Below are positions 26,776 to 51,095 of a stretch of DNA of 64,000 nt, in pieces. The position numbers and the translations under genes are program-made. Position 1 is the first letter of the stretch. Every line of letters starts with the position of its first letter. The notes below the pieces were generated by a model. That model was not told the DNA's origin. It saw only the letters and a program-made list of their open reading frames with translations, and did no database searches. Source of the DNA: Candidatus Binatia bacterium (GTDB taxonomy: Bacteria > Desulfobacterota > Binatia > HRBIN30); contig BPIR01000001.1 of NCBI GenBank assembly GCA_026004215.1, positions 832,566-896,565 of the forward strand, read 5' to 3'.

Positions 26776-28800
26776 TCAGACCGTCCCTGCGGCAGACTGC
26801 TCCGCAACCGGTCGATCGCCGCCCTGGCGCCCACGCACATCCTCCACCGTGGCCACAATGTCCTCCACGATTTGGGTCAGGGTTGCTTGGCCCGGGGTGT
26901 AAATTCTCGCCACCCCGGCTCGCCGCAGGGCGTCGTGATCCTGCTCCGGAATGATCCCGCCGACAAACACGGGCACATCCGTCAATCCTCTCTCTCGCAG
27001 CAGTTCGATCACCCGGGGCACGAGGGTCAAGTGCGAACCCGAATGGATGGACAGCCCGACCGCATCCACGTCTTCTTGCAGGGCCGACTCGGCAATTTGC
27101 TCCGGCGTCAGCCGGATGCCGTCGTAAATCACCTCGATTCCAGCTTCTTTCGCCCGCACCGCAATTTGCTCGGCGCCGTTCGAGTGACCATCGAGTCCGG
27201 GTTTCGCCACCAGGAGTCGAAGCGGGTGCCCGAGCTTTTGCGCGACACGTTGCGTGTGGGAGCGCAGGGCAGCGATGCGTTCGCCGTCCGTGGCAAAGGT
27301 TACGCCTTGCAGTCCTGTCGGCGCACGGTATTCCCCAAACACTTTGCGCAAGGTTCCCGCCCATTCACCCGTGGTCACTCCGGCGTGAGCCGCACGAATG
27401 GAGGCGGGCATAATGTTGCTTCCGTTCCGAGCCGCCTCTTCCAACGCGCGTAGTGCGGCCTCGACTTCTGCCGCGTTGCGTTTTGCGCGGAAAGCCCGCA
27501 AGCGTTCCACCTGACGGCGTTCTGCCTCCGGATCCACGACCAGGATCGCAGTCGCTCCGTTGCCCTCGAGCAGGGGGGATGGCTCGTGTTCCGTGAACTT
27601 GTTCACTCCCACGACCACGATCTCGCCGGATTCGATCTTGCGCTGTCGCTCGGCGTGGCTTGCAACCAACGCGCGCTTCATCGTTTCGATGGCCACATTC
27701 GGGTCGCCAATCGCCAAGATACGGTCGAGCTCCGCCTGCGCCGCATCCATCAGCTCCTGCACCTTGGCCTCGATCACCTTCGAACCCGCAAAAATGTCCT
27801 CGGGATATTCGAGCAAGTCCGTTTCGTAGGCGAGCACTTGCTGAATCCGGAGCGACCACTGTTGGTCCCACGGCCGCGGCAACCCGAGCGCTTCATTCCA
27901 AGCCGGCAGTTGGATCGAACGCGCCCGCGCTTCCTTGGACAGGGTGACGGCGAGCATCTCCAGGACGATGCGCTGTACGTTGTTCTCGGGCTGCTGTGCG
28001 GTAAGACCGAGCGAATTCACCTGCACGCCGTAGCGGAAGCGGCGCTTGCTCGGGTCTTCCACTCCGTAGCGCTCGCGGGTCAGGCGATCCCACAAGCGCG
28101 TGAAGGCTTTGAGCTTGCACATTTCCTCGATGAAGCGGATGCCCGCGTTTACAAAGAACGACATGGCACCAATCACATCGGGCATGGAAACGCCCGGCCG
28201 CTGGCGCACCCGATCCAAAACGGCACAGGCGTTGGCGAGCGCGAAGGCAATTTCCTGCACCGGTGTCGCCCCGGCCTCCTGCAAATGGTAGCTGCAGACG
28301 TTCATCGGGTTCCATTTGGGGATGTGCCGGACGGTGTACTCGATCACATCCACAGTTAGGCGCAGCGACGGCTCGGGAGGGAACGCGTACGTGCCGCGGG
28401 CCAGGAACTCCTTGAGAATGTCGTTCTGCGTCGTGCCGCGAAGCGTGCGTGGATCCGCACCCTGGCGTTCCGCCACCGCCACGTACAGGGCGAGGAGCCA
28501 GGCGGCCGTGGCGTTGATCGTCATCGAGGTATTCATCTTGCCGACGGGGATCTGATCGAAGAGCAGCTCCATGTCCTCGATGTGACAAATCGGCACGCCC
28601 ACTTTCCCCACTTCCCCCGCGGCCATGGGGTGATCGGAATCGTAACCCGTCTGCGTGGGCAGGTCGAAGGCAATGCTTAGGCCGGTTTGCCCTTTTGCTA
28701 AGTTGCGCCGAAACAACTCGTTAGCGGCGCGGGGATCCGTGTGGCCTGCATAGGTTCGCATCAACCACGGCTCGTCACGTTGGGTCATGAATTCGAACAT
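26776..28800 (-). CDS. Methylmalonyl-CoA mutase family protein (fused substrate-binding barrel + C-terminal B12-binding domain)
   Basis: MTQRDEPWLMRTYAGH... gives a mutase N-terminus. The C-terminal ...DVDAVGLSIHSGSHLTLVPRV...VFVGGIIPEQD is a B12-binding Rossmann-like domain. The start was chosen at the internal MFEFMTQ. Confidence 0.8.
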   Translation of the reverse strand: MFEFMTQRDEPWLMRTYAGHTDPRAANELFRRNLAKGQTGLSIAFDLPTQTGYDSDHPMAAGEVGKVGVPICHIEDMELLFDQIPVGKMNTSMTINATAAWLLALYVAVAERQGADPRTLRGTTQNDILKEFLARGTYAFPPEPSLRLTVDVIEYTVRHIPKWNPMNVCSYHLQEAGATPVQEIAFALANACAVLDRVRQRPGVSMPDVIGAMSFFVNAGIRFIEEMCKLKAFTRLWDRLTRERYGVEDPSKRRFRYGVQVNSLGLTAQQPENNVQRIVLEMLAVTLSKEARARSIQLPAWNEALGLPRPWDQQWSLRIQQVLAYETDLLEYPEDIFAGSKVIEAKVQELMDAAQAELDRILAIGDPNVAIETMKRALVASHAERQRKIESGEIVVVGVNKFTEHEPSPLLEGNGATAILVVDPEAERRQVERLRAFRAKRNAAEVEAALRALEEAARNGSNIMPASIRAAHAGVTTGEWAGTLRKVFGEYRAPTGLQGVTFATDGERIAALRSHTQRVAQKLGHPLRLLVAKPGLDGHSNGAEQIAVRAKEAGIEVIYDGIRLTPEQIAESALQEDVDAVGLSIHSGSHLTLVPRVIELLRERGLTDVPVFVGGIIPEQDHDALRRAGVARIYTPGQATLTQIVEDIVATVEDVRGRQGGDRPVAEQSAAGTV

Positions 28801-29199
28801 ACCAGCGCCCCAGACGATCAAGCAAGCCAGCGTGGCGCGGCCCAGGGTAGAGGCCGCTATCGGGCTTCGATTATCGTGTTCTCTCGAGAGAACTGCTCGC
28901 ACCTTTTTCCGGGCTTCATCTCACCGAGGTCGGTCTCGACGCTGAAAGCAGGCGACAATCACATCCTCCATCCGTTCGGCTCGGCGGCGTTATCGCGGGG
29001 ACCCCCACCCCAGGCGCAAGACGCCATAGACCAGCAGACTCATCAACACGACGAACCAGGCGCCTCTTGCGCCGACGGGAACTGAAGCGGCACAGCGCAC
29101 ACTCCCCGAACAATCAGGGTCGGCGCAGTCCACCGCCCCGTCGCCATCGTTGTCGAAATCATCGCTGCACGCGAAATCCCCCGCTGCGCGTTCGAACTG

Positions 29200-38226: not shown

Positions 38227-39141
38227 TTACCCCGGCACCGATGCCGCCTTGCGCTGCCGGTCCCAGGTCAGCGACCCGCCCTCCGTTCGCAAGGGAAGCT
38301 GGAACAGCGATGCCGGCAGGCCCACGTTGAATTGCACATGCTCGATCAACTGTTCCGCGGCCAGCCCGGCGACGGGAACTCCACCCGGATCGGCCGGGTA
38401 GAAGGACCTGACTCTCTCCTGGCGCACCCCGGCAACTTCCCGATATTCCCGCCACCGACCCAACCAGGTCGGATGCTGTAAAAATGGTGCCTCGACTTGG
38501 GCGTACACATGATCGAGGAGGCCGGAGTCCGCGTCGAAATAGAGGATCGCCCAGCGAATGGGCGACCGCAGTTCATCTGCATAGACGACGCGTAACTTTT
38601 CCCACCGCTGGTCTTCGTCCCCCTCTTGGCCTGCGTACGCGAGGGTCAGCCCCTCCATCTCCGCCAACACAAACGGCAAACCAAAGGACAACACCGAACT
38701 GATACCATGAAATTCCGTAAACATTTTTTCCTGCGGATGGTCCACCCAGCGGCCACCGCGAAACATCCAAGAGTGCCGCCCATCGTAACCGAACAACACT
38801 TCCTCCCGCAGCCCGATGGATTCCATCCGAATCAATGGTCCCCGGTGCAACGGCTGCTTGTGCAAGAAAATCGTTTCCGACGTGGCCTCACCGCGGCTGT
38901 CGAAAATGGTCAGCGTGGAAACAAAAGTCACATCTTTCAAAGCTTGCCACGCCCGCCAGCCGCCGGCAGCAGCAATCGCCTTCTCCAGCACCCGCCCGGC
39001 CTCACCTTCCGGGATGCGGGGGCGAGAACCGGAAGCGCTCGCCAGCGGCGGATTCTGCGGCACACTCTCTCGGCAACCCGCGCTCGCCCACAACCCGCCC
39101 ACACATGCCAGGGCCCACGCAACTTGTCGAATTCGCACCAT
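38227..39141 (-). CDS. Hypothetical lipoprotein
   Basis: Signal peptide with lipobox (LWASAGC). No recognisable catalytic motif. Confidence 0.6.
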   Translation of the reverse strand: MVRIRQVAWALACVGGLWASAGCRESVPQNPPLASASGSRPRIPEGEAGRVLEKAIAAAGGWRAWQALKDVTFVSTLTIFDSRGEATSETIFLHKQPLHRGPLIRMESIGLREEVLFGYDGRHSWMFRGGRWVDHPQEKMFTEFHGISSVLSFGLPFVLAEMEGLTLAYAGQEGDEDQRWEKLRVVYADELRSPIRWAILYFDADSGLLDHVYAQVEAPFLQHPTWLGRWREYREVAGVRQERVRSFYPADPGGVPVAGLAAEQLIEHVQFNVGLPASLFQLPLRTEGGSLTWDRQRKAASVPG

Positions 39142-39147
39142 GTACCC

Positions 39148-40020
39148 TTACGGCTCCTGTTTGAGGTACTCGATGATCCCCTGCACAGTGCGGCGATCGA
39201 GAATCGCACCGAAATGCGGCATGACTGGTTCTTTCTCCTGCAGCATGTGCAAAATTTGCTCGCGCATTCTAGCCTCGGGGCGGCCGCGAAAATACCCGCG
39301 ATCGAAGCGCACTTGCGGCAGTTTGGTCACTTCACCCGGAGCTGCACGCACTCCACGACCGTCGTCTCCGTGACAGGAGGCACACTTCGCCTGATACGCG
39401 CGAAATCCCGGCGACAAGAGTCGCACGAATGCCACAAGGGCGCGTGCCTCTTCCTCGCGGAGTTGCGGCACCAGTGCCGGCATGCCGGCTCGCCCGTGAC
39501 GTACAGCCAAAAGCAAATCCGCATCGCTCACCGCCCGCTGCCACGAGCGATCGCTCAAATCCCGCGGCGGCCGGACCCCTGCAGGAAGCTTCGCAGGGGG
39601 CTCACCGTAAAACCCGTGGCACTCCACGCAGCGGCCGAGGTACAACGCCCAGCCGCGTTCCACCTGCGGCCATTGCGCCCGCGCCAACCGCCGCAAGTGT
39701 TCCAGAATTTCGCCGCCTTGTTTCTCGAGCGCGGCCCGGCGCTCAGGGTCGGACGCGAGCGGTAGCGGCTGGCCGCGCAGTACTCGATCCACCAGCTCCT
39801 CCACGCTGTACCGCTGCAGCACGCCCGCCCGCAAATCGCGCGGTGGCTGCGCCAACGTCGCCGCATCCGGACCGTCGCCACGACCCTCCGGTCCGTGACA
39901 ATTCGCGCAATAGCGCAAGTACGCGACACGCCCGCTGTGGCTCTCAGCGCGAGTGCCCGCCGACGCCGCCATCACCCCCATCGCCACAACCACCCGCAAT
40001 ACCTTCCACCGAACCCGCAT
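39148..40020 (-). CDS. Tri-heme c-type cytochrome (secreted)
   Basis: Three CxxCH motifs (CANCHG, CVECHG, CASCHG) and an N-terminal signal peptide. Confidence 0.8.
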   Translation of the reverse strand: MRVRWKVLRVVVAMGVMAASAGTRAESHSGRVAYLRYCANCHGPEGRGDGPDAATLAQPPRDLRAGVLQRYSVEELVDRVLRGQPLPLASDPERRAALEKQGGEILEHLRRLARAQWPQVERGWALYLGRCVECHGFYGEPPAKLPAGVRPPRDLSDRSWQRAVSDADLLLAVRHGRAGMPALVPQLREEEARALVAFVRLLSPGFRAYQAKCASCHGDDGRGVRAAPGEVTKLPQVRFDRGYFRGRPEARMREQILHMLQEKEPVMPHFGAILDRRTVQGIIEYLKQEP

Positions 40021-40080: not shown

Positions 40081-40132
40081 TGTCCGGATCTGTCTGGACA
40101 GATGTTGACAGCCATTGGCTTTCGGTTAATCT
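40081..40132 (+). promoter_or_regulatory. Candidate CarH-type operator (three tandem ~11-bp direct repeats) overlapping a sigma70-like promoter
   Basis: tgtccggatc / tgtctggaca / gatgttgaca are TGTC-containing repeats with period 10-12. They are followed by TTGACA (40105-40110), a 16-bp spacer, then TAATCT (40127-40132). SD GGAGAG lies 7 nt before ATG 40155. Confidence 0.4.
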
Positions 40133-40154
40133 TTCCGGTGCCGGAGAGCTTCGG

Positions 40155-41177
40155 ATGGTGACGGAAAAAAAGAAGGTCAGCGCCACAGCGCAGCCCCACG
40201 AACGCTATTCCCTCGCCACGGTCAGCCGCCTGACCGGCTTGACGCCGGACGTGATTCGCGTCTGGGAGCGGCGCTACGGGGTGGTGCAGCCGGAGCGCGG
40301 GCCGCGTGGCGCGCGGATCTACCGCGCTTCGGACATCGAACGCCTCCACTTGCTCGCTGCGGTTGTGGCGTCGGGACGCGCCATTGGCGACGTGGCCCGC
40401 TTGAGCAACCGGGAGCTTTCCGCACTGCTCCATGCTGGCGGCGGGCCTATTTCTGCGAAGGGCGAGGCGGGGTCCGGCGTCCTGCACCAACCTTCCGCGA
40501 GCCAACCGGCCGCTGGCGTTATCAACGAGCGCATCATGGCAGCCGTCCAAGTGTTCGACCAGGCACAGGTCGAGCAGATTCTTGGTGACGCACTGGTGGC
40601 GCTGGGGCCCATCGGGTTGGCGCAACGAGTTCTCGCCCCATTGTTGGATACCGTCGGCGAACAATGGATGAACGGAGCCCTTACCGTAGCGCACGAACAC
40701 TTTCTCTCCGCCATCTTGCGCAACTTCGTGGCCGGCATCCTGCGCAACCGCATCAGAGCGTCGTCCCGGCCCACGGTGCTGCTGGCGACACCCGAGGGCG
40801 AACAACATGAATTTGGCCTCTTACTCGCCACTCTCGTGCTCGCAGACGCAGGGCAAAGCCTTTGCTACCTGGGCACTCAGGTGCCGACCGAAAACCTCCT
40901 CCAAGCGGCGCACGCCGTCGGTGCTGCAATCGTGGCTCTGAGCGCCGTGAATACGGCCAACCGTGCCCGCGCCGTGAAGGTCGTCGAGCAAATACTCGCG
41001 CTGCGATCTCCCAAAGTAAAGGTCTGGCTCGGGGGACGCGACGCGGCGACCGTGGCCCGCTTGGCAGGCGGCAATGGGCGCGTGACGGTCGTCTCCGACA
41101 TCAGCGAGATCGAGAGCCTCTTACGGGAGTTGCCCGACTTGCGAAGGCAACCATCGAGCAAAACGGAAAAGGAGTAA
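40155..41177 (+). CDS. carH: MerR-family transcriptional regulator with C-terminal cobalamin-binding domain (CarH/LitR-like light-dependent repressor)
   Basis: MerR HTH (YSLATVSRLTGLTPDVIRVWERRYG). A B12-binding domain with the E-x-H-x-x-G motif (EGEQHEFGLLLATLVLADAG) and a downstream GG motif (VWLGG). The start was chosen at MVTEKKK, because the track start 40077 would place the operator repeats inside the CDS. Confidence 0.8.
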   Translation: MVTEKKKVSATAQPHERYSLATVSRLTGLTPDVIRVWERRYGVVQPERGPRGARIYRASDIERLHLLAAVVASGRAIGDVARLSNRELSALLHAGGGPISAKGEAGSGVLHQPSASQPAAGVINERIMAAVQVFDQAQVEQILGDALVALGPIGLAQRVLAPLLDTVGEQWMNGALTVAHEHFLSAILRNFVAGILRNRIRASSRPTVLLATPEGEQHEFGLLLATLVLADAGQSLCYLGTQVPTENLLQAAHAVGAAIVALSAVNTANRARAVKVVEQILALRSPKVKVWLGGRDAATVARLAGGNGRVTVVSDISEIESLLRELPDLRRQPSSKTEKE

Positions 41178-41181
41178 AGTT

Positions 41182-41556
41182 ATGTCGGTATTTCCCTCGG
41201 ACGTCGAAGCACGCGATTTGGCCATCATCGAGCACATGATGGCGACCGGCGAAATTGTTGCCGCTCAGATGCCCTCTAAACACTTTTGGAGCCCCGAGAA
41301 AAAACTCGCCGCGGCTGTGTTCGTCAGCGGCCTGGTGGAAATTCGCAACCACGTTCACAACCCCGCAAAGCGTAAGCAGGTCGAAAAAGAGCTCGCCTGG
41401 GTCTTCTCCGATGACACCGACTGGCCGTATTCTTTCGTGCGACTGTGTGAACTCTTCCAACTCCACCCCGACTACGTGCGGCGGATCGTGAGCGAGTGGC
41501 TCAGCGCGCAGCCCTCTCGGCGGCGCATGTGCTCGACGCATCGCCATGCTGCTTGA
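41182..41556 (+). CDS. Hypothetical protein (second gene of carH-like operon)
   Basis: 124-aa ORF, 4 bp after the carH-like stop. No recognisable motifs. Confidence 0.45.
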   Translation: MSVFPSDVEARDLAIIEHMMATGEIVAAQMPSKHFWSPEKKLAAAVFVSGLVEIRNHVHNPAKRKQVEKELAWVFSDDTDWPYSFVRLCELFQLHPDYVRRIVSEWLSAQPSRRRMCSTHRHAA

Positions 41557-41581
41557 ACTCGCGTTTGGAGGACGTGCACGC

Positions 41582-42844
41582 ATGCGCATCGCGATCGTGG
41601 GTTCCGGCATCTCGGGCTTGGCCGCTGCGTACTACCTCTACCGCAAGCACGAAGTCCTCGTTTTCGAAAAGGAATCGTGGGTCGGTGGCCATGCCTGCAC
41701 CATCGAAGTGGAAGACGATCAAGGTCGGCCCACACCGGTCGACGTGGGCTTCCTCGTTTACAATGAAAAAACCTACCCATTGTTCACTCGACTCTTGAAC
41801 GACATCGGTGCTCCCACGGCCCCGAGCAACATGTCTTTCAGCGTACGCTGCGAGCGCTGCTCGCGGGAGTATGCGAGCCACACATGGACCACGGCTCTCG
41901 GGGGTTCCCTCAAGCAATGGTTCCGTCCCGACCATCTGCACATGCTCTGGGAAATTCCTCGATTCAACCGGCTTGCTCGCCAATGGCTGCGCGGGTTTAC
42001 TGGCCCAAAAACCCTCGGAGAGTTCGTTCGAGCACACCGGCTGTCCGATACGTTCGTGCGTCACTACTTGGCGCCCATGACGGCAGCGATCTGGTCCGCC
42101 CCGCCATCGAGGATTCACGATTTCCCACTCGCTTTGTATTTGCCCTTCATGGACAACCACGGCTTGTTGTCGGTGGCCGACCACCCACGGTGGCGGACGA
42201 TCCGCGGCGGAAGCCGGGAATATGTGCGGCGTCTGATCGCCCCGTTCCAGCGCCAAGTGTATTGGAACACGCCCGTGCGACACATTTTGCGCAGGCCGCA
42301 CGGCGTGGAGCTTCAACTCGATCACGACACCGTGCGCGTAGATGCCGTGATTCTCGCCGTGCACTCCGACCAAGCACTGGCCTTACTGGGCGACGCCACA
42401 CCGGCCGAGCGTTCCGCCTTGTCCGCAATTCGCTACCAGAAGAATGAGATCGTTCTCCACAGTGACACCGGGCTCTTGCCGCGCCAACCTCGACTGTGGT
42501 CTTCCTGGAACTACCACGTAACCGACTGCGCCGACAACACCGCACCACTGACGATGACGTACTGGATCAATAAGCTGCAGAACCTGTCCACCCAATCTCC
42601 GTTCCTCGTGTCGTTGAACTCCACGATCTCGATCGATCCTAACAAGGTGCATTGGCGTGCGCGGTTCGACCACCCGCAATACGACCACTCGACCCCTCGC
42701 GCACAAGCCTTGCTGCGGAGCCTAAACGGTCAGCGCGCCACGTACTTTTGCGGCGCGTATCTGGGATGGGGGTTTCACGAGGATGGGATCCGGTCGGCAC
42801 GTGAGGTCGCCTGGGCCATCGAGCAAGAGCGCGCTGCGGCATGA
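41582..42844 (+). CDS. FAD/NAD(P)-binding oxidoreductase, amine-oxidase/phytoene-desaturase-like
   Basis: N-terminal dinucleotide-binding motif MRIAIVGSGISGLAAAY...VFE. This family is commonly found clustered with DUF1365 and CFA-synthase genes. Confidence 0.8.
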   Translation: MRIAIVGSGISGLAAAYYLYRKHEVLVFEKESWVGGHACTIEVEDDQGRPTPVDVGFLVYNEKTYPLFTRLLNDIGAPTAPSNMSFSVRCERCSREYASHTWTTALGGSLKQWFRPDHLHMLWEIPRFNRLARQWLRGFTGPKTLGEFVRAHRLSDTFVRHYLAPMTAAIWSAPPSRIHDFPLALYLPFMDNHGLLSVADHPRWRTIRGGSREYVRRLIAPFQRQVYWNTPVRHILRRPHGVELQLDHDTVRVDAVILAVHSDQALALLGDATPAERSALSAIRYQKNEIVLHSDTGLLPRQPRLWSSWNYHVTDCADNTAPLTMTYWINKLQNLSTQSPFLVSLNSTISIDPNKVHWRARFDHPQYDHSTPRAQALLRSLNGQRATYFCGAYLGWGFHEDGIRSAREVAWAIEQERAAA

Positions 42845-43668
42845 AGTCGGCGTTGTATTTCGGATGGGTCCAACACGTACGGCACCATCCCCAGCGTCAT
42901 CGATTCCGATACCGCTCCGCTTTCTTTTATCTCGACCTTCACGAGCTGCCTATACTACGGCGACGACTTTGGCTTCTCGGCGTCAACCGGCCCGGCTTGT
43001 TTTCCCTTCGCGAGAGCGATTTTCTGGATGGGCGCGGCTTGTCGGTGGAACGGCTGAAGACTTTCGTAGCTCAGCAGGGTCTCCCCAGCGAAGCTATAGC
43101 CGCCACACGGCTGCTCACGCATGTCCGGCAATGGGGTTACGTATTCAATCCCATCTCCCTCTTCTTCTGTTTCAGCCGCGCAGACGAACTTCTTTACGTC
43201 GTTGCCGAGGTCAACAACACTTTCGGAGAGCGTTTTCACTACGTGCTATCCGACCTTTCCCACCACGGCGGCAACTCAGTGTTCTTCGCCAAGGTCGAAA
43301 AGCACATGCATGTGTCGCCGTTCGCTTCGCGCGACGGCTGTCACTACGAATTTCGTTTTCGGCCACCCGCGGATCGGTTTTCGCTAGCCATTCGGCTCCG
43401 GGAGCAAGATCGGCCCGTAATCGATGCCGCTCTCTGGGCCGAGCGGCATCCTCTGTCCGACCGCACGTTGCTGCGTCTTGCGGCCCGCCACCCCTGGCTG
43501 ACGGCCAAGGTCACACTCGCAATCCACTGGGAGGCCCTGAAACTGTACCGAAAAGGCCTGCCATTTTTTTCCCAACCGCCCCCGAGCCCGGCGCAAGCAG
43601 CGCAGCAAGCGATTTGGCAGCGGTCGAATTTACACCACGAGCAGTCCAAGCTGCGGTTTCGCTCGTAG
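42841..43668 (+). CDS. DUF1365 domain protein
   Basis: Conserved core ...GYVFNPISLFF...FHYV.... There is a 4-bp overlap with the upstream oxidoreductase. Confidence 0.8.
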   Translation: MKSALYFGWVQHVRHHPQRHRFRYRSAFFYLDLHELPILRRRLWLLGVNRPGLFSLRESDFLDGRGLSVERLKTFVAQQGLPSEAIAATRLLTHVRQWGYVFNPISLFFCFSRADELLYVVAEVNNTFGERFHYVLSDLSHHGGNSVFFAKVEKHMHVSPFASRDGCHYEFRFRPPADRFSLAIRLREQDRPVIDAALWAERHPLSDRTLLRLAARHPWLTAKVTLAIHWEALKLYRKGLPFFSQPPPSPAQAAQQAIWQRSNLHHEQSKLRFRS

Positions 43669-43681
43669 AAAGGAGTCAATC

Positions 43682-44911
43682 ATGGAACGCGTCGCCTCGC
43701 TGGAACTGAACACCAAGGTGCCCAATTGGCTGGATCGTCGAGCAGTTGCTCTCGTGCTCCAGGCGCTCCGCAGGGTTTCCGGTGCGCAAATCTTGGTGCG
43801 GCTACCCGACGGCAGCACGCTGTGCGGTGGCGAACACGAAGCAGATCTCCAGGTCACCGTGAAGATCCATGAATGGCAAGTCTTTCGCCGTTTGCTCTGG
43901 GAGCAAGACATCGGTGCCGGCGAGACGTATGCCGAGGGGTGGTGGGATACTGACAATTTGCCTCTTCTCTGCCGCGTGTTCCTTCGCAGCAATGCCCTGT
44001 GGGAGCTCCCTTCCCTAGCACGGCGGATGTTTCGCATCGCCCAACGGGTCCACTGGAGACTTCAACGGAACACCCGCAGTGGCAGCCGGAGAAATATCGC
44101 CTATCACTATGACTTGGGCAACGACTTCTACCGGCTGTTTCTCGACGAGAGCCTCACATACAGTTGCGCCCTCTTCGAGCCGGCATCGCTCGGCCTGGCG
44201 GAGGCACAAGCCAAAAAACTCGACGAAGTTTGCCGGCAGATCGGCTTGCAAACTGGCCAAAGCATTCTCGAGATCGGCTGCGGTTGGGGATCCTTCGCGC
44301 TGCACGCCGCCACCCATTACGGGGCACGGGTGCACGGAATTTCGCTATCCCAGCGGCAATTAGACCTGGCCCGCCAGAGAGTCGCCGAGGCCGGCCTGCA
44401 CGACCAGATCACCCTAGAATATCGCGATTATCGAACCGTGCATGGTACCTTCGACCACATTGTCTCCATCGAGATGTTCGAAGCCGTTGGCCACGAGTAC
44501 TACTGCGATTTTTTCCGGGCCGTCCAGCGCTGTCTCCGGCCGGGCGGACGCTTTTTCCTCCAAACCATCACGGTTCCCGATCAACGCTACGACTCATACC
44601 GCCGCGACTTCGATTTCATCAAGAAACATATTTTCCCGGGTGGCTTGCTGGCCTCGCTCCACCGTATCCTCGAGACCACCAAGCAACATACCGACTTGCG
44701 ACTCGTGTACTTGCGCGACATTGGGGAACATTACGCCCGCACTCTCCGAACATGGCGCGAGCGATTTTTAGCTGCTCTCCCCGAGGTGTTCTCCCTCGGC
44801 TTCGACCGGCGCTTTGCCCGCCTGTGGGAGTTTTATCTCGCCAGTTGCGAAGCCGCTTTTAGCGTGCGTCACATTGGGGACGCCCAAATGGTGTTCGAGC
44901 GCCCCGCTTGA
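43682..44911 (+). CDS. Cyclopropane-fatty-acyl-phospholipid synthase family SAM-dependent methyltransferase
   Basis: SAM-binding motif ILEIGCGWG and the CFA-synthase-family C-terminal region (HIFPGG, YLASCEAAF). Confidence 0.85.
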   Translation: MERVASLELNTKVPNWLDRRAVALVLQALRRVSGAQILVRLPDGSTLCGGEHEADLQVTVKIHEWQVFRRLLWEQDIGAGETYAEGWWDTDNLPLLCRVFLRSNALWELPSLARRMFRIAQRVHWRLQRNTRSGSRRNIAYHYDLGNDFYRLFLDESLTYSCALFEPASLGLAEAQAKKLDEVCRQIGLQTGQSILEIGCGWGSFALHAATHYGARVHGISLSQRQLDLARQRVAEAGLHDQITLEYRDYRTVHGTFDHIVSIEMFEAVGHEYYCDFFRAVQRCLRPGGRFFLQTITVPDQRYDSYRRDFDFIKKHIFPGGLLASLHRILETTKQHTDLRLVYLRDIGEHYARTLRTWRERFLAALPEVFSLGFDRRFARLWEFYLASCEAAFSVRHIGDAQMVFERPA

Positions 44912-45091: not shown

Positions 45092-46261
45092 ATGGAAATT
45101 TTTGGCTATTGCGACCCGCGCTTCGAGCGTGTACGCGACGCGTTCCGCCACAACTTTGCCTCGCGCGGCGAGCTCGGGGCGGCCGTCCACGTCATTGTCC
45201 AGGGCAAGCCCGTGGTGGACTTGTGGGGCGGCATCGCCGATCACCACACCGGCACGGCGTGGAAAGAGGACACCCTCGTGCTGGTTTTCTCCTCGACCAA
45301 AGGGGCCACAGCCGCGTGCGCGCACCTGTTGCGTACGCGGGGACTGTTGGATTTCGAAGCTCCCGTGGCACGCTACTGGCCGGAATTTGCGCAACAGGGG
45401 AAAGAGTCTCTGCCGGTTTCTTTCCTGCTCACCCACCAGGCGGGACTGGCGGCCATCGAAGAACCCCTTCCTCCCGAGGCACTGTTCGACTGGTCGCGCA
45501 TGACCACGGCCCTGGCGCGACAGCGCCCGCTGTGGAGGCCGGGCGAGGGGCACGGCTACCACGCTGTCACCTTCGGGTTTTTGGTGGGAGAGGTCATTCG
45601 GCGTGTGAGTGGGCGAAGCGCCGGGCACTTTCTGCGCGAGGAAATCGCCAAACCTTTGGGCCTGGAATTTTGGATCGGTTTGCCCGCCGAGTACGAACCC
45701 CGCGTCGCCAGAGTACGCCTGCCTCCGCTGCGCACGCGCCCGACCCCGTTTTTTCGCGCCCTCATGCAGCGTGGCTCGCTGACGTGGCAAGCCTTCATGA
45801 ACCCGCCGAGCTTCACGAGCGGCAGCGCCGCCAACACGCGCGCGGTGCGTGCGGCCGAGCTCCCCGCCAGTAACGGAATCACCAGCGCCCGCGGGTTGGC
45901 TGGATTGTACGCCGCATTGATCGGAAGGGTAAACGGTGCCGCTACACCACTGCTCGACCCCGATACCCGCGCCCTCGCGGAACGTGTCGCTGTGGATGGT
46001 CCAGACCGCGTTCTGCTCGTGCGCACCCGCTTCAGCCACGGGTTCATGAAAAGCGTGGCCGACGATCCCAACGACTCTGTCCGCTTCGGCCCTAACGATG
46101 CAGCGTTCGGCCACGTCGGCGCGGGCGGGTCCTTCGGCATGGCGGATCCGGTGGCGGAGGTGGCCATGGGATACGTGATGAACCAGCTCGGCCCGGGTAT
46201 TTTCCTGAACGAACGCGGCCAGAGCCTCATTGACGCCGTGTACGAATGCCTGGGGGCGTGA
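45092..46261 (+). CDS. Serine hydrolase, beta-lactamase/EstB-like esterase family
   Basis: SxxK nucleophile motif (FSSTKG) and class C-like YxN/KTG-equivalent regions. The antisense 373-aa ORF is rejected. Confidence 0.8.
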   Translation: MEIFGYCDPRFERVRDAFRHNFASRGELGAAVHVIVQGKPVVDLWGGIADHHTGTAWKEDTLVLVFSSTKGATAACAHLLRTRGLLDFEAPVARYWPEFAQQGKESLPVSFLLTHQAGLAAIEEPLPPEALFDWSRMTTALARQRPLWRPGEGHGYHAVTFGFLVGEVIRRVSGRSAGHFLREEIAKPLGLEFWIGLPAEYEPRVARVRLPPLRTRPTPFFRALMQRGSLTWQAFMNPPSFTSGSAANTRAVRAAELPASNGITSARGLAGLYAALIGRVNGAATPLLDPDTRALAERVAVDGPDRVLLVRTRFSHGFMKSVADDPNDSVRFGPNDAAFGHVGAGGSFGMADPVAEVAMGYVMNQLGPGIFLNERGQSLIDAVYECLGA

Positions 46262-46543
46262 AGTGCCGGCAAGCCACTACCGAGGCCCTTCGCAGCCACT
46301 CGGCCGCGGTTCCCTCCCACGCCTCGCCCCGAGTGGGGCACGGTGCGGAGCGCCAATACTAGCACTGGCGCAGAGGTGGCAAGGGTCGTTCGAACCCGAA
46401 GACACGGAGGAACTAGCCTGCAAGCGGTTCTCTTCCACCGTTGGCTAGAACGCCCGCGGCTTACGTGCATCCCGACAGACGGAAGATCCGAAGGGCACAC
46501 CAGGCTTCCACCTACGGGCACCACGACCCTTCCCGGGTCAAAG

Positions 46544-47311
46544 TCAGTGGACGGGTGCCACCCTCGGGTGCGGCGCGCGCTGCATCATCGAGAGCAGTGC
46601 CCAAGCGCACAACCATGCGTAAAAGACAACGTTCAACCACAACTTTACCGGGCGGAGGAGTTCGAGGCCTACAGCACCTCCAGAGTATACCGCGACGCTC
46701 AGGGCAAACGGGTTTCCCCGAGTCTGGCGGACGAGGACCCGAGCCGACGCAGCAGCGAAAAGGGCCAGCACTGCAAAGTACAGCGGCAGAGGCTCTACGG
46801 GCAACGTGTGCGCGGCCTCCGGGGGCAGCCAGCCCGCACGGGCCTGCTGCAAGAAGACGACGCTGTGCTTGCTCAACGAAACTGCCCACGGAGTCGTGCT
46901 GGGCAGACCAAAACAGCAACCATTGAGGAAACATCCCAGGTGAACGAACGCCACGCTCGCCCAAGCCGGCGCGGCCAGCGCATGCATGGACTCGCGCAGG
47001 CGAAGGAGATCCAGTCGCTGCCCGATAGAAAGTATCGCCACTGCGAGCGACAACCCTCCTGGAAGGCGAAACCCGGCGAGCCAATTCGGCGCCACGAAGG
47101 GAAAGTCGCTCGGACACAAAACGCGCTCCAGCACATACGTACCCTTCGCACCCAAGAAGACCGCAATGACCAACGCCATGGAGAACAGTGTCGCCGGGAA
47201 ACGCCCAACTCCGGCGCGAACGAGGCAGCGCGGCGCCCACACCAGAAATGCCACGGCCGCTAACACCCAGGCGGCATAGTACGTCGGTATGCCAGCAACG
47301 TACGGCAGCAT
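46544..47311 (-). CDS. lgt: Prolipoprotein diacylglyceryl transferase-like membrane protein
   Basis: Polytopic membrane protein with the Lgt-like signature HLGCFLNGCCFG...PWAV. Confidence 0.6.
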   Translation of the reverse strand: MLPYVAGIPTYYAAWVLAAVAFLVWAPRCLVRAGVGRFPATLFSMALVIAVFLGAKGTYVLERVLCPSDFPFVAPNWLAGFRLPGGLSLAVAILSIGQRLDLLRLRESMHALAAPAWASVAFVHLGCFLNGCCFGLPSTTPWAVSLSKHSVVFLQQARAGWLPPEAAHTLPVEPLPLYFAVLALFAAASARVLVRQTRGNPFALSVAVYSGGAVGLELLRPVKLWLNVVFYAWLCAWALLSMMQRAPHPRVAPVH

Positions 47312-47400
47312 TGCCTACCCCGGTGTCGGCAGGCGCGACATTCGAGATATCGCTTGCCGAGAGGCGACTCGGTCCACCGTTGCGGCGAGGGCGCTCCTCA

Positions 47401-47985
47401 TCAGTAAGCCTCGACTGCGCCCACTGCCTCGAGGTCTTCCACCGGTGGCCACTGCCACGTTCCCCACTCGCCACTCGTGAGTTCGTACTTGCCTGCCGCG
47501 CCCCCCACACGCCACGAGCCGGAAAAGTTCCCAACGACATTCCCCGCCTCGTCGAACAGCTTACCGTACACCACTCCCGGCTCGATCACGCCCTCGCAAC
47601 CGAGCACCTCCCCGTCGGAACGCCCCGGCAGAACAACTTTTCCGCGTAGCTCCTTTCCCTCCCGCACCCCCACAAAGCTCCAAGCTGTGGCGGTGCGCTC
47701 CCCAGTCGAAGGAGACTGCCCAATTCCGGACTCGGCCAAATCTCCGCGCAACGCCAGCGACTCCGGCAACACAACTCCCAGCAGCAACGAATCCGGCGCC
47801 AGCAGCACCAGGCTCACGGCAATCGCTGCCCCCACCCAAAACCCGCACCACCGAGGGATCTTGGAAACCCCCACCCGCTGGCGCTCGCAGTCGCTCACGG
47901 CAGCACCTCCACGCTCACGGCCGGGCACCACACACAGGGCTCCTCCACCCACGGCCGACACGCCCACTGGTAGTGGCCGCGGCAC
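47401..47985 (-). CDS. Hypothetical secreted protein
   Basis: Hydrophobic N-terminal segment, with a compositionally normal C-terminal half (VVYGKLFDEAGNVVGNF...). The start is uncertain. It lies directly upstream of the lgt-like gene. Confidence 0.4.
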   Translation of the reverse strand: MPRPLPVGVSAVGGGALCVVPGRERGGAAVSDCERQRVGVSKIPRWCGFWVGAAIAVSLVLLAPDSLLLGVVLPESLALRGDLAESGIGQSPSTGERTATAWSFVGVREGKELRGKVVLPGRSDGEVLGCEGVIEPGVVYGKLFDEAGNVVGNFSGSWRVGGAAGKYELTSGEWGTWQWPPVEDLEAVGAVEAY

Positions 47986-48494
47986 TGAAGAGTGTCCAAC
48001 CGGTACTCACCCGCTTCGACCCAGCTTTCCACTCGCACACGACAGCGAAACAACTGCGGCTCCCCCCGGGGCCGGCGGCGCAACTCCCCGTACAATGCAA
48101 TCCCCCTGCATGGGACGTCTTCCCCGCACCCCATCGGGTAAGGCTCCGCCCTCAGCCCGGCATACGCCGGCGCGTCCACCGCGACGCAACTCGCCGTGTG
48201 CCCTCCGGCAACCCGGACAACCGGCCCCAGCAGAGTCGTGCCCGCAGTCGCCCACGGAAAGCTCACCAATGCCGCAACCTTCCAACCCTGCCACTCTTCA
48301 TCGCGAGCAAACCACGGGGACACCAAGGTCACCACCAGCACCGCTTCTTGCCCCGCCCGCGCCCGCACGGGCTCCGTGGCTACCCGCACCGTGCGGCTGC
48401 AATCGATCCCCTGCGCCACGCACTCCCGCCTCAGCCCCTCCACCCCAACCACAGCAAGAACAAACCACAGCACTGCGAATGCACGACGCAACAT
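47895..48494 (-). CDS. Hypothetical Cys-rich secreted protein
   Basis: Internal start MLRRAFAVLWFVLAVVGVEG (signal peptide) followed by a Cys-rich domain. The track's 120-codon Gly/Arg-rich extension is rejected. Confidence 0.45.
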   Translation of the reverse strand: MLRRAFAVLWFVLAVVGVEGLRRECVAQGIDCSRTVRVATEPVRARAGQEAVLVVTLVSPWFARDEEWQGWKVAALVSFPWATAGTTLLGPVVRVAGGHTASCVAVDAPAYAGLRAEPYPMGCGEDVPCRGIALYGELRRRPRGEPQLFRCRVRVESWVEAGEYRLDTLQCRGHYQWACRPWVEEPCVWCPAVSVEVLP

Positions 48495-49057
48495 CACTGG
48501 CTGCCTCCCGCAGGCTGGTTGTCTTCCTGCCACGTCGCCACGCAGCTCGACAGCACGTTGCGCACCCCACGCACCACCTCGTCCACCGTCACTGCCCCGT
48601 CCTCGTTGCCATCCGCCGCAGCACAGCTCTCGTACGGCCCCGCTCCCACCACGATGCCCACCGCCCGCACCAACTCCTCCACCGTGACCCGGGCGTCCCG
48701 ATTGCAGTCGCCCACACACGGCACCACCTGCAACGTACCCCCTTGGCAGCCTCGCCCGCATTCCGCCGGCAGCACGAGAGCCTCGCGGTTCCCCGTGCAC
48801 TCGATCGGATAGGCACGCGGCTTTGCCGTGGGAGGGATGGTGAACTCGCAGCAAATGGCTTCATCGTCAGGGGCAAACGGAAGACCGCTGGGAAGGGGCC
48901 ACCCTAACTCGTCCGGCCAAGCAAATGGTTTCTCAGGCACCCAGGGCCCCCCGCGGTCGGCCAGGGAGCACACCAATCCGGACAGGATGTCCCCCTGGAT
49001 TCCTTCGCACGGTGTCGACTCTCCGCAACCGGGGGGAAAAAAAATCCCCTCCCACAC
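48494..49057 (-). CDS. Hypothetical Cys-rich protein with dockerin-like Ca-binding repeats
   Basis: Two EF-hand-like dockerin repeats (DCNRDARVTVEELV, DGNEDGAVTVDEVV). GTG start. Codons 5-9 lie on a T8C6 tract. Confidence 0.45.
   Translation of the reverse strand: MWEGIFFPPGCGESTPCEGIQGDILSGLVCSLADRGGPWVPEKPFAWPDELGWPLPSGLPFAPDDEAICCEFTIPPTAKPRAYPIECTGNREALVLPAECGRGCQGGTLQVVPCVGDCNRDARVTVEELVRAVGIVVGAGPYESCAAADGNEDGAVTVDEVVRGVRNVLSSCVATWQEDNQPAGGSQ
49031..49044. repeat. G6A8 (C6... T8 on coding strand) compound homopolymer at codons 5-9 of the ORF 48494..49057
   Basis: ggggggaaaaaaaa on the + strand. It encodes I-F-F-P-P on the minus strand. Confidence 0.7.
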
Positions 49058-49630
49058 CTCGGTGGCGCTTTCGCTGGGATCAACCGCGCCGGCAACAACG
49101 AAGCCTTCCTCTCGCCCCAGCTTAGGCTATTCCGGAGAGCCAAGGACCAACGGTCTAGCTTCGGATTGTAAAGCCTACAGAAAACAGGCCCGGAAAACCC
49201 CCTCAAATCCCGGAACCGTAAAGAGAAGGTGGCATACCAGGTGCCGTACTGATCACAACAACGAAAGCGCGGCCGCACCGCCACACACACTCGTGTCCGC
49301 GCGCCCGGCGCTCCGATCGCATCCGATGCTTTCACAGGCTCCACGACATGCTGGGCAAAATAAGGCCAAGGTTGGTCTTCGTTTGCCGGAAAATCCATGA
49401 CAAATTGTCCGGCGCAGCGCGGCGCGCAAGCAAAGAGCAACCCAAATCCACCTATTAGACTGGCTAACGTCCGTTGGTGTTCCGATGCTCGATGAAATCG
49501 TGCTTTCATGGCCCGCTCTCCTCAGCAGCAGCTCCCCGAACAGCCACCTACCCACAAGGTGGATCGCCCAGGAAACGGCCACAACGATGTGCCGCGAAGG
49601 TCCCCCGCCCGCGCCCGCTCCACCCGAGGG

Positions 49631-49870
49631 CACCGCGGGCAGGCACCAGGCCTGCCCCTACACACGTCGCCCGCAATCGCATCGTTTCCCCCGGCACCAC
49701 GGGCGTGTAGGGGCGACCCTTGTGGTCGCCCGGGGTTCCCCCGGGCACCGCGGGGGGGCGCCGGCACCGCGGGCAGGCACAAGGCCTGCCCCTACACACG
49801 TCGGCCGCAATCGCATCGTTTCCCCCGGCACCATGGGCGCGTAGGGGCGACCCTTGTGGTCGCCCGGGAC
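49631..49870. repeat. Tandem dimer of a 134-bp nested-palindrome repeat element
   Basis: Unit: caccgcGGGCAGGCacaagGCCTGCCCctacacacgtcg[g/c]ccgcaatcgcatcgtttcccccggcacca[c/t]gggcg[t/c]gtaGGGGCGACCcttgtGGTCGCCCgg. The period is 134 bp (49631→49765). It contains two 8-bp-stem hairpins plus an outer CCTACACACG/CGTGTAGG inverted repeat. Confidence 0.75.
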
Positions 49871-50373
49871 CGGTGTCCTCGCCGCCTGCTGAGCCCGGGC
49901 CAGGCCCAATCTGGACGGTGGCCGGGTGTGCCTGGCGGTGGCCAGCGATTTCCGGCAAGCACGGCACCGAGCAACGACGCCCAACTCGAGGCATCTACCA
50001 CAGACCCCCTCCAACCAGCCGGATTCACCACTTCACGGCAGGAGAGCCGCCGGGCGGTGGCGCCTCGAATCAAGTCCTCGACGCCGTAGTCGCCATCACG
50101 ATCGTAATCCACGTTCGGGCAACGCCGCGGTAGGCCACTCGCATCCGGCCACAACACATCGTCGCGGCCCTCGACCAACTCGGATGTGTCTACAACACCA
50201 TCTTCGTTACAATCCACTGGGCAGGCTCCCAGCCCCCATGCCGACCCGATCACCCATTGGAGGCACAAAAGAGGCCCGCCAAGCCCGAGTCGCAGCCAAC
50301 ACCTGACCCCCCCCCCCCCCCAACGCAGAGAAACTCTCTTGCGTGCGATCGGCAGCATGGGGATCCTCCCCAA
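49792..50373 (-). CDS. Small dockerin-like repeat ORF with G15 tract near its 5' end (the 3' part of the track ORF runs into the repeat element and is probably not coding)
   Basis: Dockerin-like repeats (DCNEDGVVDTSELV, DYDRDGDYGVEDLI). The N-terminal WGGGGV is encoded by the G15 tract. The C-terminal ~30 codons are a translation of repeat unit 2. Confidence 0.35.
   Translation of the reverse strand: MGRIPMLPIARKRVSLRWGGGGVRCWLRLGLGGPLLCLQWVIGSAWGLGACPVDCNEDGVVDTSELVEGRDDVLWPDASGLPRRCPNVDYDRDGDYGVEDLIRGATARRLSCREVVNPAGWRGSVVDASSWASLLGAVLAGNRWPPPGTPGHRPDWAWPGLSRRRGHRSRATTRVAPTRPWCRGKRCDCGRRV
50307..50321. repeat. C15/G15 homopolymer
   Basis: acctgaCCCCCCCCCCCCCCCcaacg is 15 consecutive C, the longest homopolymer in the window. 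It lies within the 5' coding region of the minus-strand ORF 49792..50373. Confidence 0.9.
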
Positions 50374-50583
50374 AGGCCATTTACGTTTACACCCACCGGC
50401 CGAATGGAGTCAAGCAGCGAGATAGGTCAGTGACCGCATCGCCGGGGCAAGGCCCCACCAAGGCTGGCCAACGATGCGCGTGCATGTCACGCACAGGCCG
50501 TTCCGTTACTCGGGCCATGATTGCCTAAACCTCGGCAGCGGGGACTTCCTATCGGTAACCGATGCGACACTCTACAAGGCGAG

Positions 50584-50835
50584 CCCGCGGGCGGCTCCCT
50601 CGGTATGGCGGATCCGGTGGCGGAGGGCCAGTGCCGCAAAGTACAGCGGCAGAGGCTCTACGGGCAACGTGTGCGCGGCCTCCGGGGGCACCCAGCCCGC
50701 ACGGGCCTGCTGCAAGAAGACGACGCTGTGCTTGCTCAACGAAACTGCCCACGGCGTCGCGCTGGGCACACCAAAACAGCAGCCATTGAGGAAACATCCC
50801 AGGTGAACGAACGCCACGCTCACCCAGGCCGGAGT
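50584..50835 (-). pseudogene. Internally deleted duplicate of the esterase-3'/lgt segment (lgt fragment pseudogene)
   Basis: 50584-50627 is ~90% identical to 46121-46161 (the esterase 3' end). It is joined directly to 50628-50830, which is ~95% identical to 46762-46964 (lgt codons for …VAFVHLGCFLNGCCFG…PWAVSL…). This means about 600 bp are missing relative to the parental locus. Confidence 0.6.
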
Positions 50836-50869
50836 CGTGAGCGCAATCGCCCACGGAAAGCGGGCGCGG

Positions 50870-51095
50870 GCACCACGGGCAGGCACAAGGCCTCCCCCTA
50901 CACACGTCGCCCGCGACCGCATCGTTTCGCCCGGTACCGTGGGCGTGTAGGGGCGACCCTTGTGGTCGCCCGGGGTTCCCCCGGGCACCGCGGGGGGGCG
51001 CGGGCACCGCGGGCAGGCACAAGGCCTGCCCCTACACACGTCGGCCGCAATCGCATCGTTTGCCCCCGGCACCACGGGCGCGCACACCCACACCT
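50870..51095. repeat. Second tandem dimer of the 134-bp nested-palindrome repeat element (second unit truncated)
   Basis: Same unit as 49631-49870, in the same orientation, with period 134 (50871→51005). The second unit degenerates after ...ggcaccacgggcg. Confidence 0.75.

Follow-up and report, generated by a model that had tools for sequence, protein, structure and literature searches.

The window analysed here, 64,000 nucleotides (nt) of a Candidatus Binatia bacterium (contig BPIR01000001.1), contains five tightly packed genes on the plus strand at positions 40155-44911, as seen from an open reading frame (ORF) list and a Pfam scan. They encode a CarH-type regulator with a cobalamin (B12)-binding module, a conserved protein of 124 residues (aa), and three predicted enzymes that resemble UfaD, UfaO and UfaM of furan fatty acid synthesis. 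We propose that they probably form a light-derepressed, negatively autoregulated operon for furan-fatty-acid genes. The proposal is based on the domains and motifs of the proteins, the packing of the genes, a conserved putative operator and promoter in front of the regulator gene, the linkage of regulator and ufa genes across phyla, and the grouping of the methyltransferase with UfaM.

Organization of the operon

The first gene (40155-41177, plus strand) codes for the 340-aa carH/litR class I-type regulator, composed of a MerR winged helix-turn-helix (HTH) domain, a linker, a four-helix bundle with the Wx9EH motif and a Rossmann B12-binding domain. It is followed on the same strand by the gene of the small conserved protein (41182-41556, 124 aa), with an all-helical model and an invariant C-terminal R-x-A-A. 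The next gene encodes a predicted UfaD-like FAD-dependent fatty-acyl desaturase (41546-42844, plus strand; 432-aa ORF with Amino_oxidase and NAD_binding_8 domains). The last two, also on the plus strand, encode a predicted UfaO-like DUF1365 protein for the O2-dependent furan-ring-forming step (42841-43668, 275 aa) and a predicted UfaM-type fatty-acyl methyltransferase of the CMAS family, dependent on S-adenosylmethionine (SAM) (43682-44911, 409 aa). The intergenic gaps are, in order, +4, -11, -4 and +13 nt, the ufaO-like gene overlapping the gene upstream of it by 4 nt. An earlier note on this DNA had described five genes in this order on the plus strand, separated by small gaps, and the ORF list, the Pfam matches and the measured gaps bear this out.

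Homologues helped to place two of the gene starts. The regulator ORF is open from 40077, and the homologues, together with a GGAGAG ribosome-binding site 6 nt 5' of the ATG, favour ATG 40155; with the gene starting there, 40081-40154 is regulatory DNA. Homologues of the UfaD-like protein are 419-421 aa long, so its start is probably ATG 41582 (MRIAIVGSG...), in which case the gene would begin 25 nt behind the small gene and not overlap it by 11 nt. The scanner found no terminator after the CMAS gene (fold z-score 0.07).

The regulator carries the CarH signature

The regulator matched the Pfam families MerR_1 (E = 2.4e-13, residues 18-84), B12-binding_2 (E = 5.4e-10) and B12-binding (PF02310, E = 2.1e-12). 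Its N-terminal domain is a MerR-type winged helix that aligns with the DNA-binding domain of Thermus thermophilus CarH, the closest solved relative (3whp/5c8d, E = 5e-29). CarH homologues are defined by two motifs taken together, Wx9EH and ExHx2Gx41SxV/Tx22-27GG, the former of which sets CarH apart from MetH and from the B12-independent CarA (PMC8156234). The cobalamin motif of the window regulator is complete, E216-x-H218-x2-G221-x41-S263-x-V265-x27-G293G294, an exact pattern match over residues 216-294. The Wx9EH motif is present as W171-MNGALTVAH-E181H182, is invariant in the family alignment and aligns to WHRGEIGVAEEH of 3whp; W131, E141 and H142 of T. thermophilus CarH and the axial His of its ERHEIG all align with residues of the window regulator. 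The earlier note had proposed a MerR-HTH plus cobalamin-binding regulator of CarH type, citing ExHxxG and GG. All three domains were found, ExHxxG and GG lie within the full canonical pattern, and the Wx9EH motif, which had gone unmentioned, provides the second of the two defining motifs (PMC8156234).

One score counts against a straightforward assignment. The NCBIfam equivalog NF052513 (TransRegCarH), still the best NCBIfam match, gave 129.8 bits against a cut-off of 400. Because this cut-off was missed, we regard the regulator as a divergent member of the CarH family and not as an equivalog. Its nearest homologues (50-55% identity) come from Binatia metagenome-assembled genomes.

The regulator might instead report cobalamin or redox state and not light, acting as a dark B12-dependent co-repressor or in an AerR/PpaA-like manner, and would then couple lipid remodelling to B12 status. 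B12-binding domains are not confined to photosensory proteins, the weaker structure matches included AerR (7te2) and corrinoid proteins, and the missed equivalog cut-off points in the same direction, as does the precedent of Myxococcus xanthus CarA, which has the B12 motif and yet acts independently of B12 (PMC8156234). We consider this explanation very unlikely, however, since the Wx9EH motif, which caps the adenosyl group and marks CarH versus MetH-type proteins and CarA, is present here and invariant in the family, and since the predicted targets are the classical singlet-oxygen/photo-oxidative module, light-induced via other LitR classes in Pseudomonas (PMC9758184) and Vibrio cholerae (PMC5241685). 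A CarH-type photoreceptor, which we favour, needs adenosylcobalamin (AdoCbl) as its chromophore. That the organism uses AdoCbl follows from a gene in the window (26776-28902, minus strand) for a methylmalonyl-CoA mutase, an AdoCbl-dependent enzyme whose C-terminal domain is of the B12-binding type.

The enzymes of the lipid cluster

UfaM has been described as a CMAS-family methylase, UfaD as an NAD/FAD-binding, phytoene-desaturase-like protein, and UfaO as a DUF1365 protein that inserts O2-derived oxygen (Lemke 2020, PMC7380195). In Rhodopseudomonas palustris, RPA2571-2570-2569 (ufaD-ufaO-ufaM) suffice for the synthesis of the furan fatty acid (FuFA) 9M5-FuFA (PMC7380195). The trio in the window belongs to the same three families and is arranged in the same order, in agreement with the furan-fatty-acid module claimed in the earlier note. 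The UfaD-like protein, encoded beside the ufaO-like gene, matched Amino_oxidase (E = 4.7e-25) and NAD_binding_8 (E = 9.2e-13); it was assigned by domain content and published description, with no reference UfaD sequence compared. The UfaO-like protein matched DUF1365 (PF07103, E = 6.2e-73) over model positions 1-234 of 235, and the methyltransferase matched CMAS (E = 8.3e-88).

The methyltransferase was typed against Halomonas ufaM and cfa, which are product-validated (Table S1 of PMC12089945), and against E. coli cfa. Its identity to Halomonas UfaM was 43.4%; the values for the Cfa proteins were lower, 29.5% (Halomonas) and 37.6% (E. coli). In a neighbour-joining tree, the window CMAS and all other CMAS proteins encoded in ufa clusters grouped with UfaM, apart from both Cfa proteins. 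The check that the earlier note had suggested, a phylogeny of UfaM versus Cfa, thus placed the protein with the validated UfaM and away from the E. coli and Halomonas Cfa. Its scores against the NCBIfam Cfa equivalogs NF008686, NF053839 and NF040703 were 298.7, 279.5 and 239.3 bits, all below the respective cut-offs of 400, 600 and 650. We take these results as supportive, not conclusive, of a methyltransferase of the UfaM type and not of the Cfa type; weighing against that reading, the single UfaM reference was derived from a DNA supplement damaged by optical character recognition and the tree is without bootstrap support.

It is also conceivable that light is sensed as proposed and the product is not a furan, the cluster being a paralogous lipid-modification pathway that yields a methyl-branched, cyclopropane or other oxidised acyl chain. 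The Rhodobacter sphaeroides operon RSP1091-1087 offers a precedent that speaks against furan synthesis in the window, as its in-operon CMAS, RSP1089, is dispensable for FuFA synthesis and is not the functional UfaM (PMC7380195); because that operon carries a dispensable CMAS paralogue, gene position alone cannot prove UfaM function. DUF1365 is, moreover, a broad family for which Lemke et al. consider other oxidation roles possible (PMC7380195), and the window CMAS is only 43% identical to the sole validated UfaM compared. Against a non-furan product stand the identity of the trio and its order with RPA2571-2570-2569, which are sufficient for 9M5-FuFA (PMC7380195), the position of the CMAS in the clade of the validated UfaM and not with the two validated Cfa proteins, and its scores under all Cfa equivalog cut-offs. 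On balance, such a product seems unlikely to us, and we retain a furan fatty acid as the predicted one.

Putative operator and promoter

A putative CarH operator, at 40081-40110 (no strand assigned) in front of the regulator gene, takes the form of an inverted repeat, TGTCCGGATCTGTC-TG-GACAGATGTTGACA, whose arms at 40081-40094 and 40097-40110 (14 + 14 nt) were 79% complementary in the repeat search, and it comprises four TGTC/GACA half-sites with 10-bp spacing, two per strand. The left coordinate of the regulatory DNA in the earlier note, 40081, is the exact start of this repeat. A putative sigma-70-type promoter occupies 40105-40132 on the plus strand, with a -35 box TTGACA (40105-40110), a 16-nt spacer and a -10 box TAATCT of the TAnnnT type (40127-40132). 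The -35 box lies within the putative operator; just past the -10 box come the ribosome-binding site and the ATG.

The core T-TGTC-N2-GACA-N4-TTGACA is invariant between the window and the regions upstream of five related regulator genes (loci L001-L005), which are otherwise unalignable. The regulators of these loci are 45-55% identical to that of the window, and the flanking genes differ in L004 and L005. A TAnnCT-like -10 box is kept at equal spacing in the closest relatives, L001-L004. A search with the regular expression TGTC-N1-3-GACA-N3-5-TTGACA returned 69 matches from loci totalling 1.85 Mb, and the majority stand directly 5' of CarH-like or small-protein genes, including regulator genes of Acidobacteriota and Betaproteobacteria; in the 64-kb window itself, no second operator copy with up to three mismatches was found. 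The conserved operator over the -35 box 5' of the regulator gene supports autoregulation, which the earlier note had suggested.

Loci with divergent genes showed a fuller palindrome, TTGTCAA-N4-TGTCC-A-TGACA-N4-TTGACAA, with a -35 box on each strand. In three loci of other phyla (L052, L067 and L016), the operator stands directly before a divergent ufa cluster. In L067 and L016 the motif is ~2 kb from the regulator gene and falls precisely between two divergent units, the ufa cluster and an operon of DUF1295 and short-CMAS genes (plus DUF2177 in L067) in which the regulator gene is the last. The lipid genes themselves are thereby linked to the operator.

Two features of the region argue against a CarH operator over a standard promoter. 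The generic promoter scanner missed the -10 box, which matched 3 of 6 consensus positions; since the scanner made no call, the promoter is one that we infer. In addition, the operator is of an inverted 2+2 design and does not consist of the tandem 11-bp direct repeats nAnnTnnACAn of T. thermophilus and Bacillus megaterium CarH (PMC8156234). That consensus is fully fitted by one of the four repeats only, GATGTTGACAG (40101-40111).

On the other side of the operator region, a three-haem c-type cytochrome (39148-40020, minus strand) and a 304-aa protein with no Pfam match (38227-39141, minus strand) are encoded divergently. Read on the minus strand, the left repeat arm contains CGGACA, a weak -35 box.

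Linkage of the regulator and ufa genes

Five-gene blocks like that of the window occur in its relatives. L001-L003 are syntenic with the window over more than 15 kb, unrelated genes included, and L004, with a regulator of 48% identity, has the same five-gene block between different flanks. In L005, the regulator and small genes are followed by Chalcone_3 and DUF2878 genes. These are families that share the ufa cluster in L007, where a 31%-identical regulator with the CarH signature is divergent from a SnoaL/SDR/UfaD/UfaO/CMAS/DUF2878/Chalcone_3 cluster. L006 (Gemmatimonadales) has the classical regulator-crtI-crtB arrangement. CarH-like regulators of 30-40% identity were also found near ufa genes in other phyla.

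The extent of the linkage was assessed in a census of 80 CarH-like loci from many phyla, with one genome per GTDB species; a caveat to the proposal is that these loci are the best tblastn matches to the window regulator and are biased to its relatives. UfaD and UfaO homologues lay within 10 kb in 16 of the 80 loci, mostly in divergent orientation, and 15 of the 16 had a UfaM homologue too; crtI was found within the same distance in 10 of the 80. Both Wx9EH and [E/D/Q]xHxxG were present in 71 of 87 regulators (the 80 together with those of L001-L007), and most of the others keep the aligned axial His. The linkage of regulator and ufa genes is clearly recurrent and independent of lineage.

We also weighed the view that this linkage is mere inherited synteny, the regulator having no target besides its own gene (and the small gene), with the ufa genes under separate regulation. 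The synteny of L001-L003 over more than 15 kb extends to unrelated genes, as this view would predict, and the small gene with the operator occurs without ufa genes in L005, L103, L104 and L112. We nevertheless find it extremely unlikely. The gaps of -11 to +13 nt give no space for an internal promoter, the block is kept in L004 despite different flanks, the operator directly precedes divergent ufa clusters in other phyla, and the linkage recurs in the independent species of the census. An unlinking of the cluster from the regulator in relatives, named in the earlier note as a finding that would refute its proposal, was not what we observed in L004 or in the other phyla.

DUF1295 and DUF2177 genes and that of a second, shorter CMAS paralogue of ~340 aa lie near the CarH-like gene, or in one operon with it, in Acidobacteriota and other phyla (L067, 7866-9979; L016, 7773-9595; L013, 11049-12845; L077, 8748-9761). 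This paralogue may be FufM- or RSP1089-like.

Proposed mechanism

For a light-derepressed and negatively autoregulated operon, we infer AdoCbl binding, a light response, repression and the lipid product as follows. In the dark, the CarH-type regulator would bind AdoCbl and oligomerise, and the oligomer would cover the 30-bp operator with its four half-sites, excluding RNA polymerase through the overlap with the -35 box. UV-to-green light would cleave the Co-C bond, upon which the oligomer would disassemble and the promoter open. Transcription would then proceed through the regulator, 124-aa, ufaD-, ufaO- and ufaM-like genes, and the three enzymes would act on the cis-vaccenoyl chains of membrane phospholipids, turning them into a singlet-oxygen scavenger, a monomethyl furan fatty acid. 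In this predicted route, UfaM with SAM would give 11Me-12t-18:1, UfaD with FAD would give 11Me-10t,12t-18:2, and UfaO with O2 would give 9M5-FuFA. Once the light is over, newly made regulator with AdoCbl would re-establish repression.

The 124-aa protein

Pfam, NCBIfam and PHROG searches with the 124-aa protein gave no match. Its alignment has invariant W36, K40, W73, W81, F85, C89, R100 and W106 and ends in R-x-A-A-COOH. The AlphaFold 2 model is all-helical, with five helices, a pLDDT of 77 and a core above 90, and a fold search with this model returned no significant match. A CarS-type antirepressor, a small acidic protein whose SH3-like beta fold imitates operator DNA, was considered and ruled out, given that the model is all-helical and no 2KSS-like fold was matched. 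Signals recognized by ClpX at C-termini include ...LAA of ssrA and ...VAA of RseA. By analogy, the R-x-A-A end suggests regulated turnover of the 124-aa protein.

A profile search returned 33 representative clusters at E ≤ 1e-30, and 4,441 when the threshold was relaxed to E ≤ 1e-3, which places the protein in a subfamily of a large family that lacks annotation. The core motif of the large family is PExRL-LAVLE...SDD-WPFSF-ICE-LGLDPDYVR. Pfam searches with 28 members and 10 distant members, and PHROG searches, found nothing except one AP2/HNH fusion. Among the distant members P0321, P0237 and P0306, one is fused to an AP2/HNH-endonuclease-like domain and two are long (333 and 647 aa), with two separate matches to the profile in each; P0237 shows a visible repeat of the SDD...F..ICE motif.

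In L001-L005 the small gene comes directly after the regulator gene. Among 70 metagenome loci, the DNA upstream of the small gene reaches 700 nt or more in 47, and 23 of these show the same adjacency. The gene orders observed were REG-SMALL-ufaDOM, REG-SMALL-ufaMDO and SMALL-REG. Several stand-alone small genes have a CarH-type operator directly upstream (L103, L104, L112, L116 and L119), and none of the remaining 24 copies whose upstream DNA was checked has one; the small gene is thus often, not always, found directly behind a CarH-type operator. A neighbour common to the operator-less stand-alone copies was ruled out, as the ten genes scanned were mutually unrelated; they include genes for an ABC ATPase, a sigma-54 activator, HTH-cupin proteins and a K+ transporter.

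Our best guess is that the 124-aa protein is a short-lived regulatory accessory. A bolder joint reading, possible but doubtful in our judgement, has two parts. The protein would be an unrecognised component of B12 light signalling, a short-lived HTH-like helical factor with an ssrA-like degron that is induced from the CarH operator and acts as an antirepressor or co-repressor, or carries the signal to further promoters, as LitS does for LitR and the LOV protein for class II LitR. CarH-type photoreceptors would, in addition, govern furan-fatty-acid protection at least as often as carotenogenesis, via a bidirectional palindromic operator.

Flanking region

Downstream of the CMAS gene and separated from it by 180 nt lies a gene for a beta-lactamase-fold esterase (LipL-like; 45092-46261, plus strand). 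It is probably outside the operon, because it is kept behind the cluster solely in the closest, fully syntenic relatives (L001-L003, L090 and L092); it is absent in L004. A search of the window for a cobalamin riboswitch and other RNA families returned one tRNA only.

A ~4-kb segment 3' of the esterase gene (46120-51066) is flanked by direct repeats. The repeats are 46120-46160 / 50586-50626 (93%) and 49625-49826 / 49759-49960 / 50865-51066, and a further pair, 46761-46982 / 50624-50845 (93%), is a fragment of an Lgt-like gene (46544-47311, minus strand). Inner ORFs of the segment have no Pfam match, its base skews are unusual, and it is absent from L001-L003. An insertion or a duplication could account for the segment, as could an assembly artefact.

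Significance

Both halves of the proposed system are familiar, a known photoreceptor family and a known photoprotective lipid module, and their pairing is already known for a sister regulator class. What goes beyond expectation is the wide recurrence across phyla, the palindromic and potentially bidirectional operator, and the conserved small protein. If the proposal is correct, the output of B12 photoreceptors would extend from pigments to membrane lipid chemistry, and in many bacteria photons, not damage sensed by sigmaE/ChrR, would be the cue to stock the membrane in advance with furan fatty acids that scavenge singlet oxygen. A widespread, little-studied cluster (DUF1365, DUF1295, DUF2878 and CMAS paralogues) would gain a regulatory handle and a "light-induced" annotation, and uncultured Binatia would be expected in lit, oxic niches and to have AdoCbl. 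A CarH/operator pair of different geometry might be of use for studying the plasticity of CarH DNA binding and for optogenetic tools. The unannotated family of the 124-aa protein, with its 4,441 representative clusters, would become experimentally approachable.

Comparison with known systems

The closest comparison is with CarH, or class I LitR, of T. thermophilus, M. xanthus, B. megaterium and Streptomyces. The domain order, both motifs, an operator over the -35 box of a sigma-A-type promoter and likely autoregulation are common to these systems and the window. They differ in the target, a lipid cluster of furan-fatty-acid type in the window and carotenoid genes in the known systems, and in the operator, with inverted 2+2 TGTC/GACA half-sites in the former and three or four tandem direct repeats in the latter. 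The window operon also contains the conserved 124-aa gene, and its regulator is ~30-35% identical to the solved protein.

The class II LitR proteins PplR1 and PmlR of Pseudomonas putida and P. mendocina control phrB, ufaM, FAD-oxidoreductase and SDR genes; class II LitR represses a sigma-70 promoter, binding a site that overlaps its -35 box (PMC9758184). The regulator family and the kind of target, ufaM with an FAD oxidoreductase, are thus shared with the window. Class II LitR, however, lacks the Rossmann B12-binding domain, retains the four-helix bundle only and does not sense light itself, a short LOV protein serving as the blue-light antirepressor, whereas the window regulator has the full B12 module (PF02310). 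The class II site, TGTACA-N12-TGTACA, also differs from the window operator. The statement in the earlier note that this arrangement is not a described one was therefore too strong, as control of a ufaM/FAD-oxidoreductase cluster by the LitR/CarH family has been published for the B12-independent class II (PMC9758184). Our literature search, incomplete in coverage so that a prior mention is possible, found no paper that ties a B12-dependent (class I) CarH to furan-fatty-acid genes.

In V. cholerae, blue light induces photolyase genes with the participation of the MerR-like, LitR-like VCA0056 and of ChrR, and it also induces a gene of the CFA-synthase family (PMC5241685). Unlike the window regulator, VCA0056 as described has no B12 domain; its mechanism has been proposed to run via reactive oxygen species, and the CFA-synthase gene is not adjacent.

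The R. sphaeroides RpoE-ChrR regulon and the R. palustris cluster share with the window the enzyme families, the presumed product and the protective role, and the gene order is shared with R. palustris. No gene for an extracytoplasmic function (ECF) sigma factor or ChrR was detected among the ~40 ORFs scanned in the 64-kb window, which is a part of the genome. RpoE-ChrR is an ECF sigma/anti-sigma pair that answers singlet oxygen, a damage signal, whereas the window operon is proposed to be governed by a direct photon sensor, and its response would be anticipatory.

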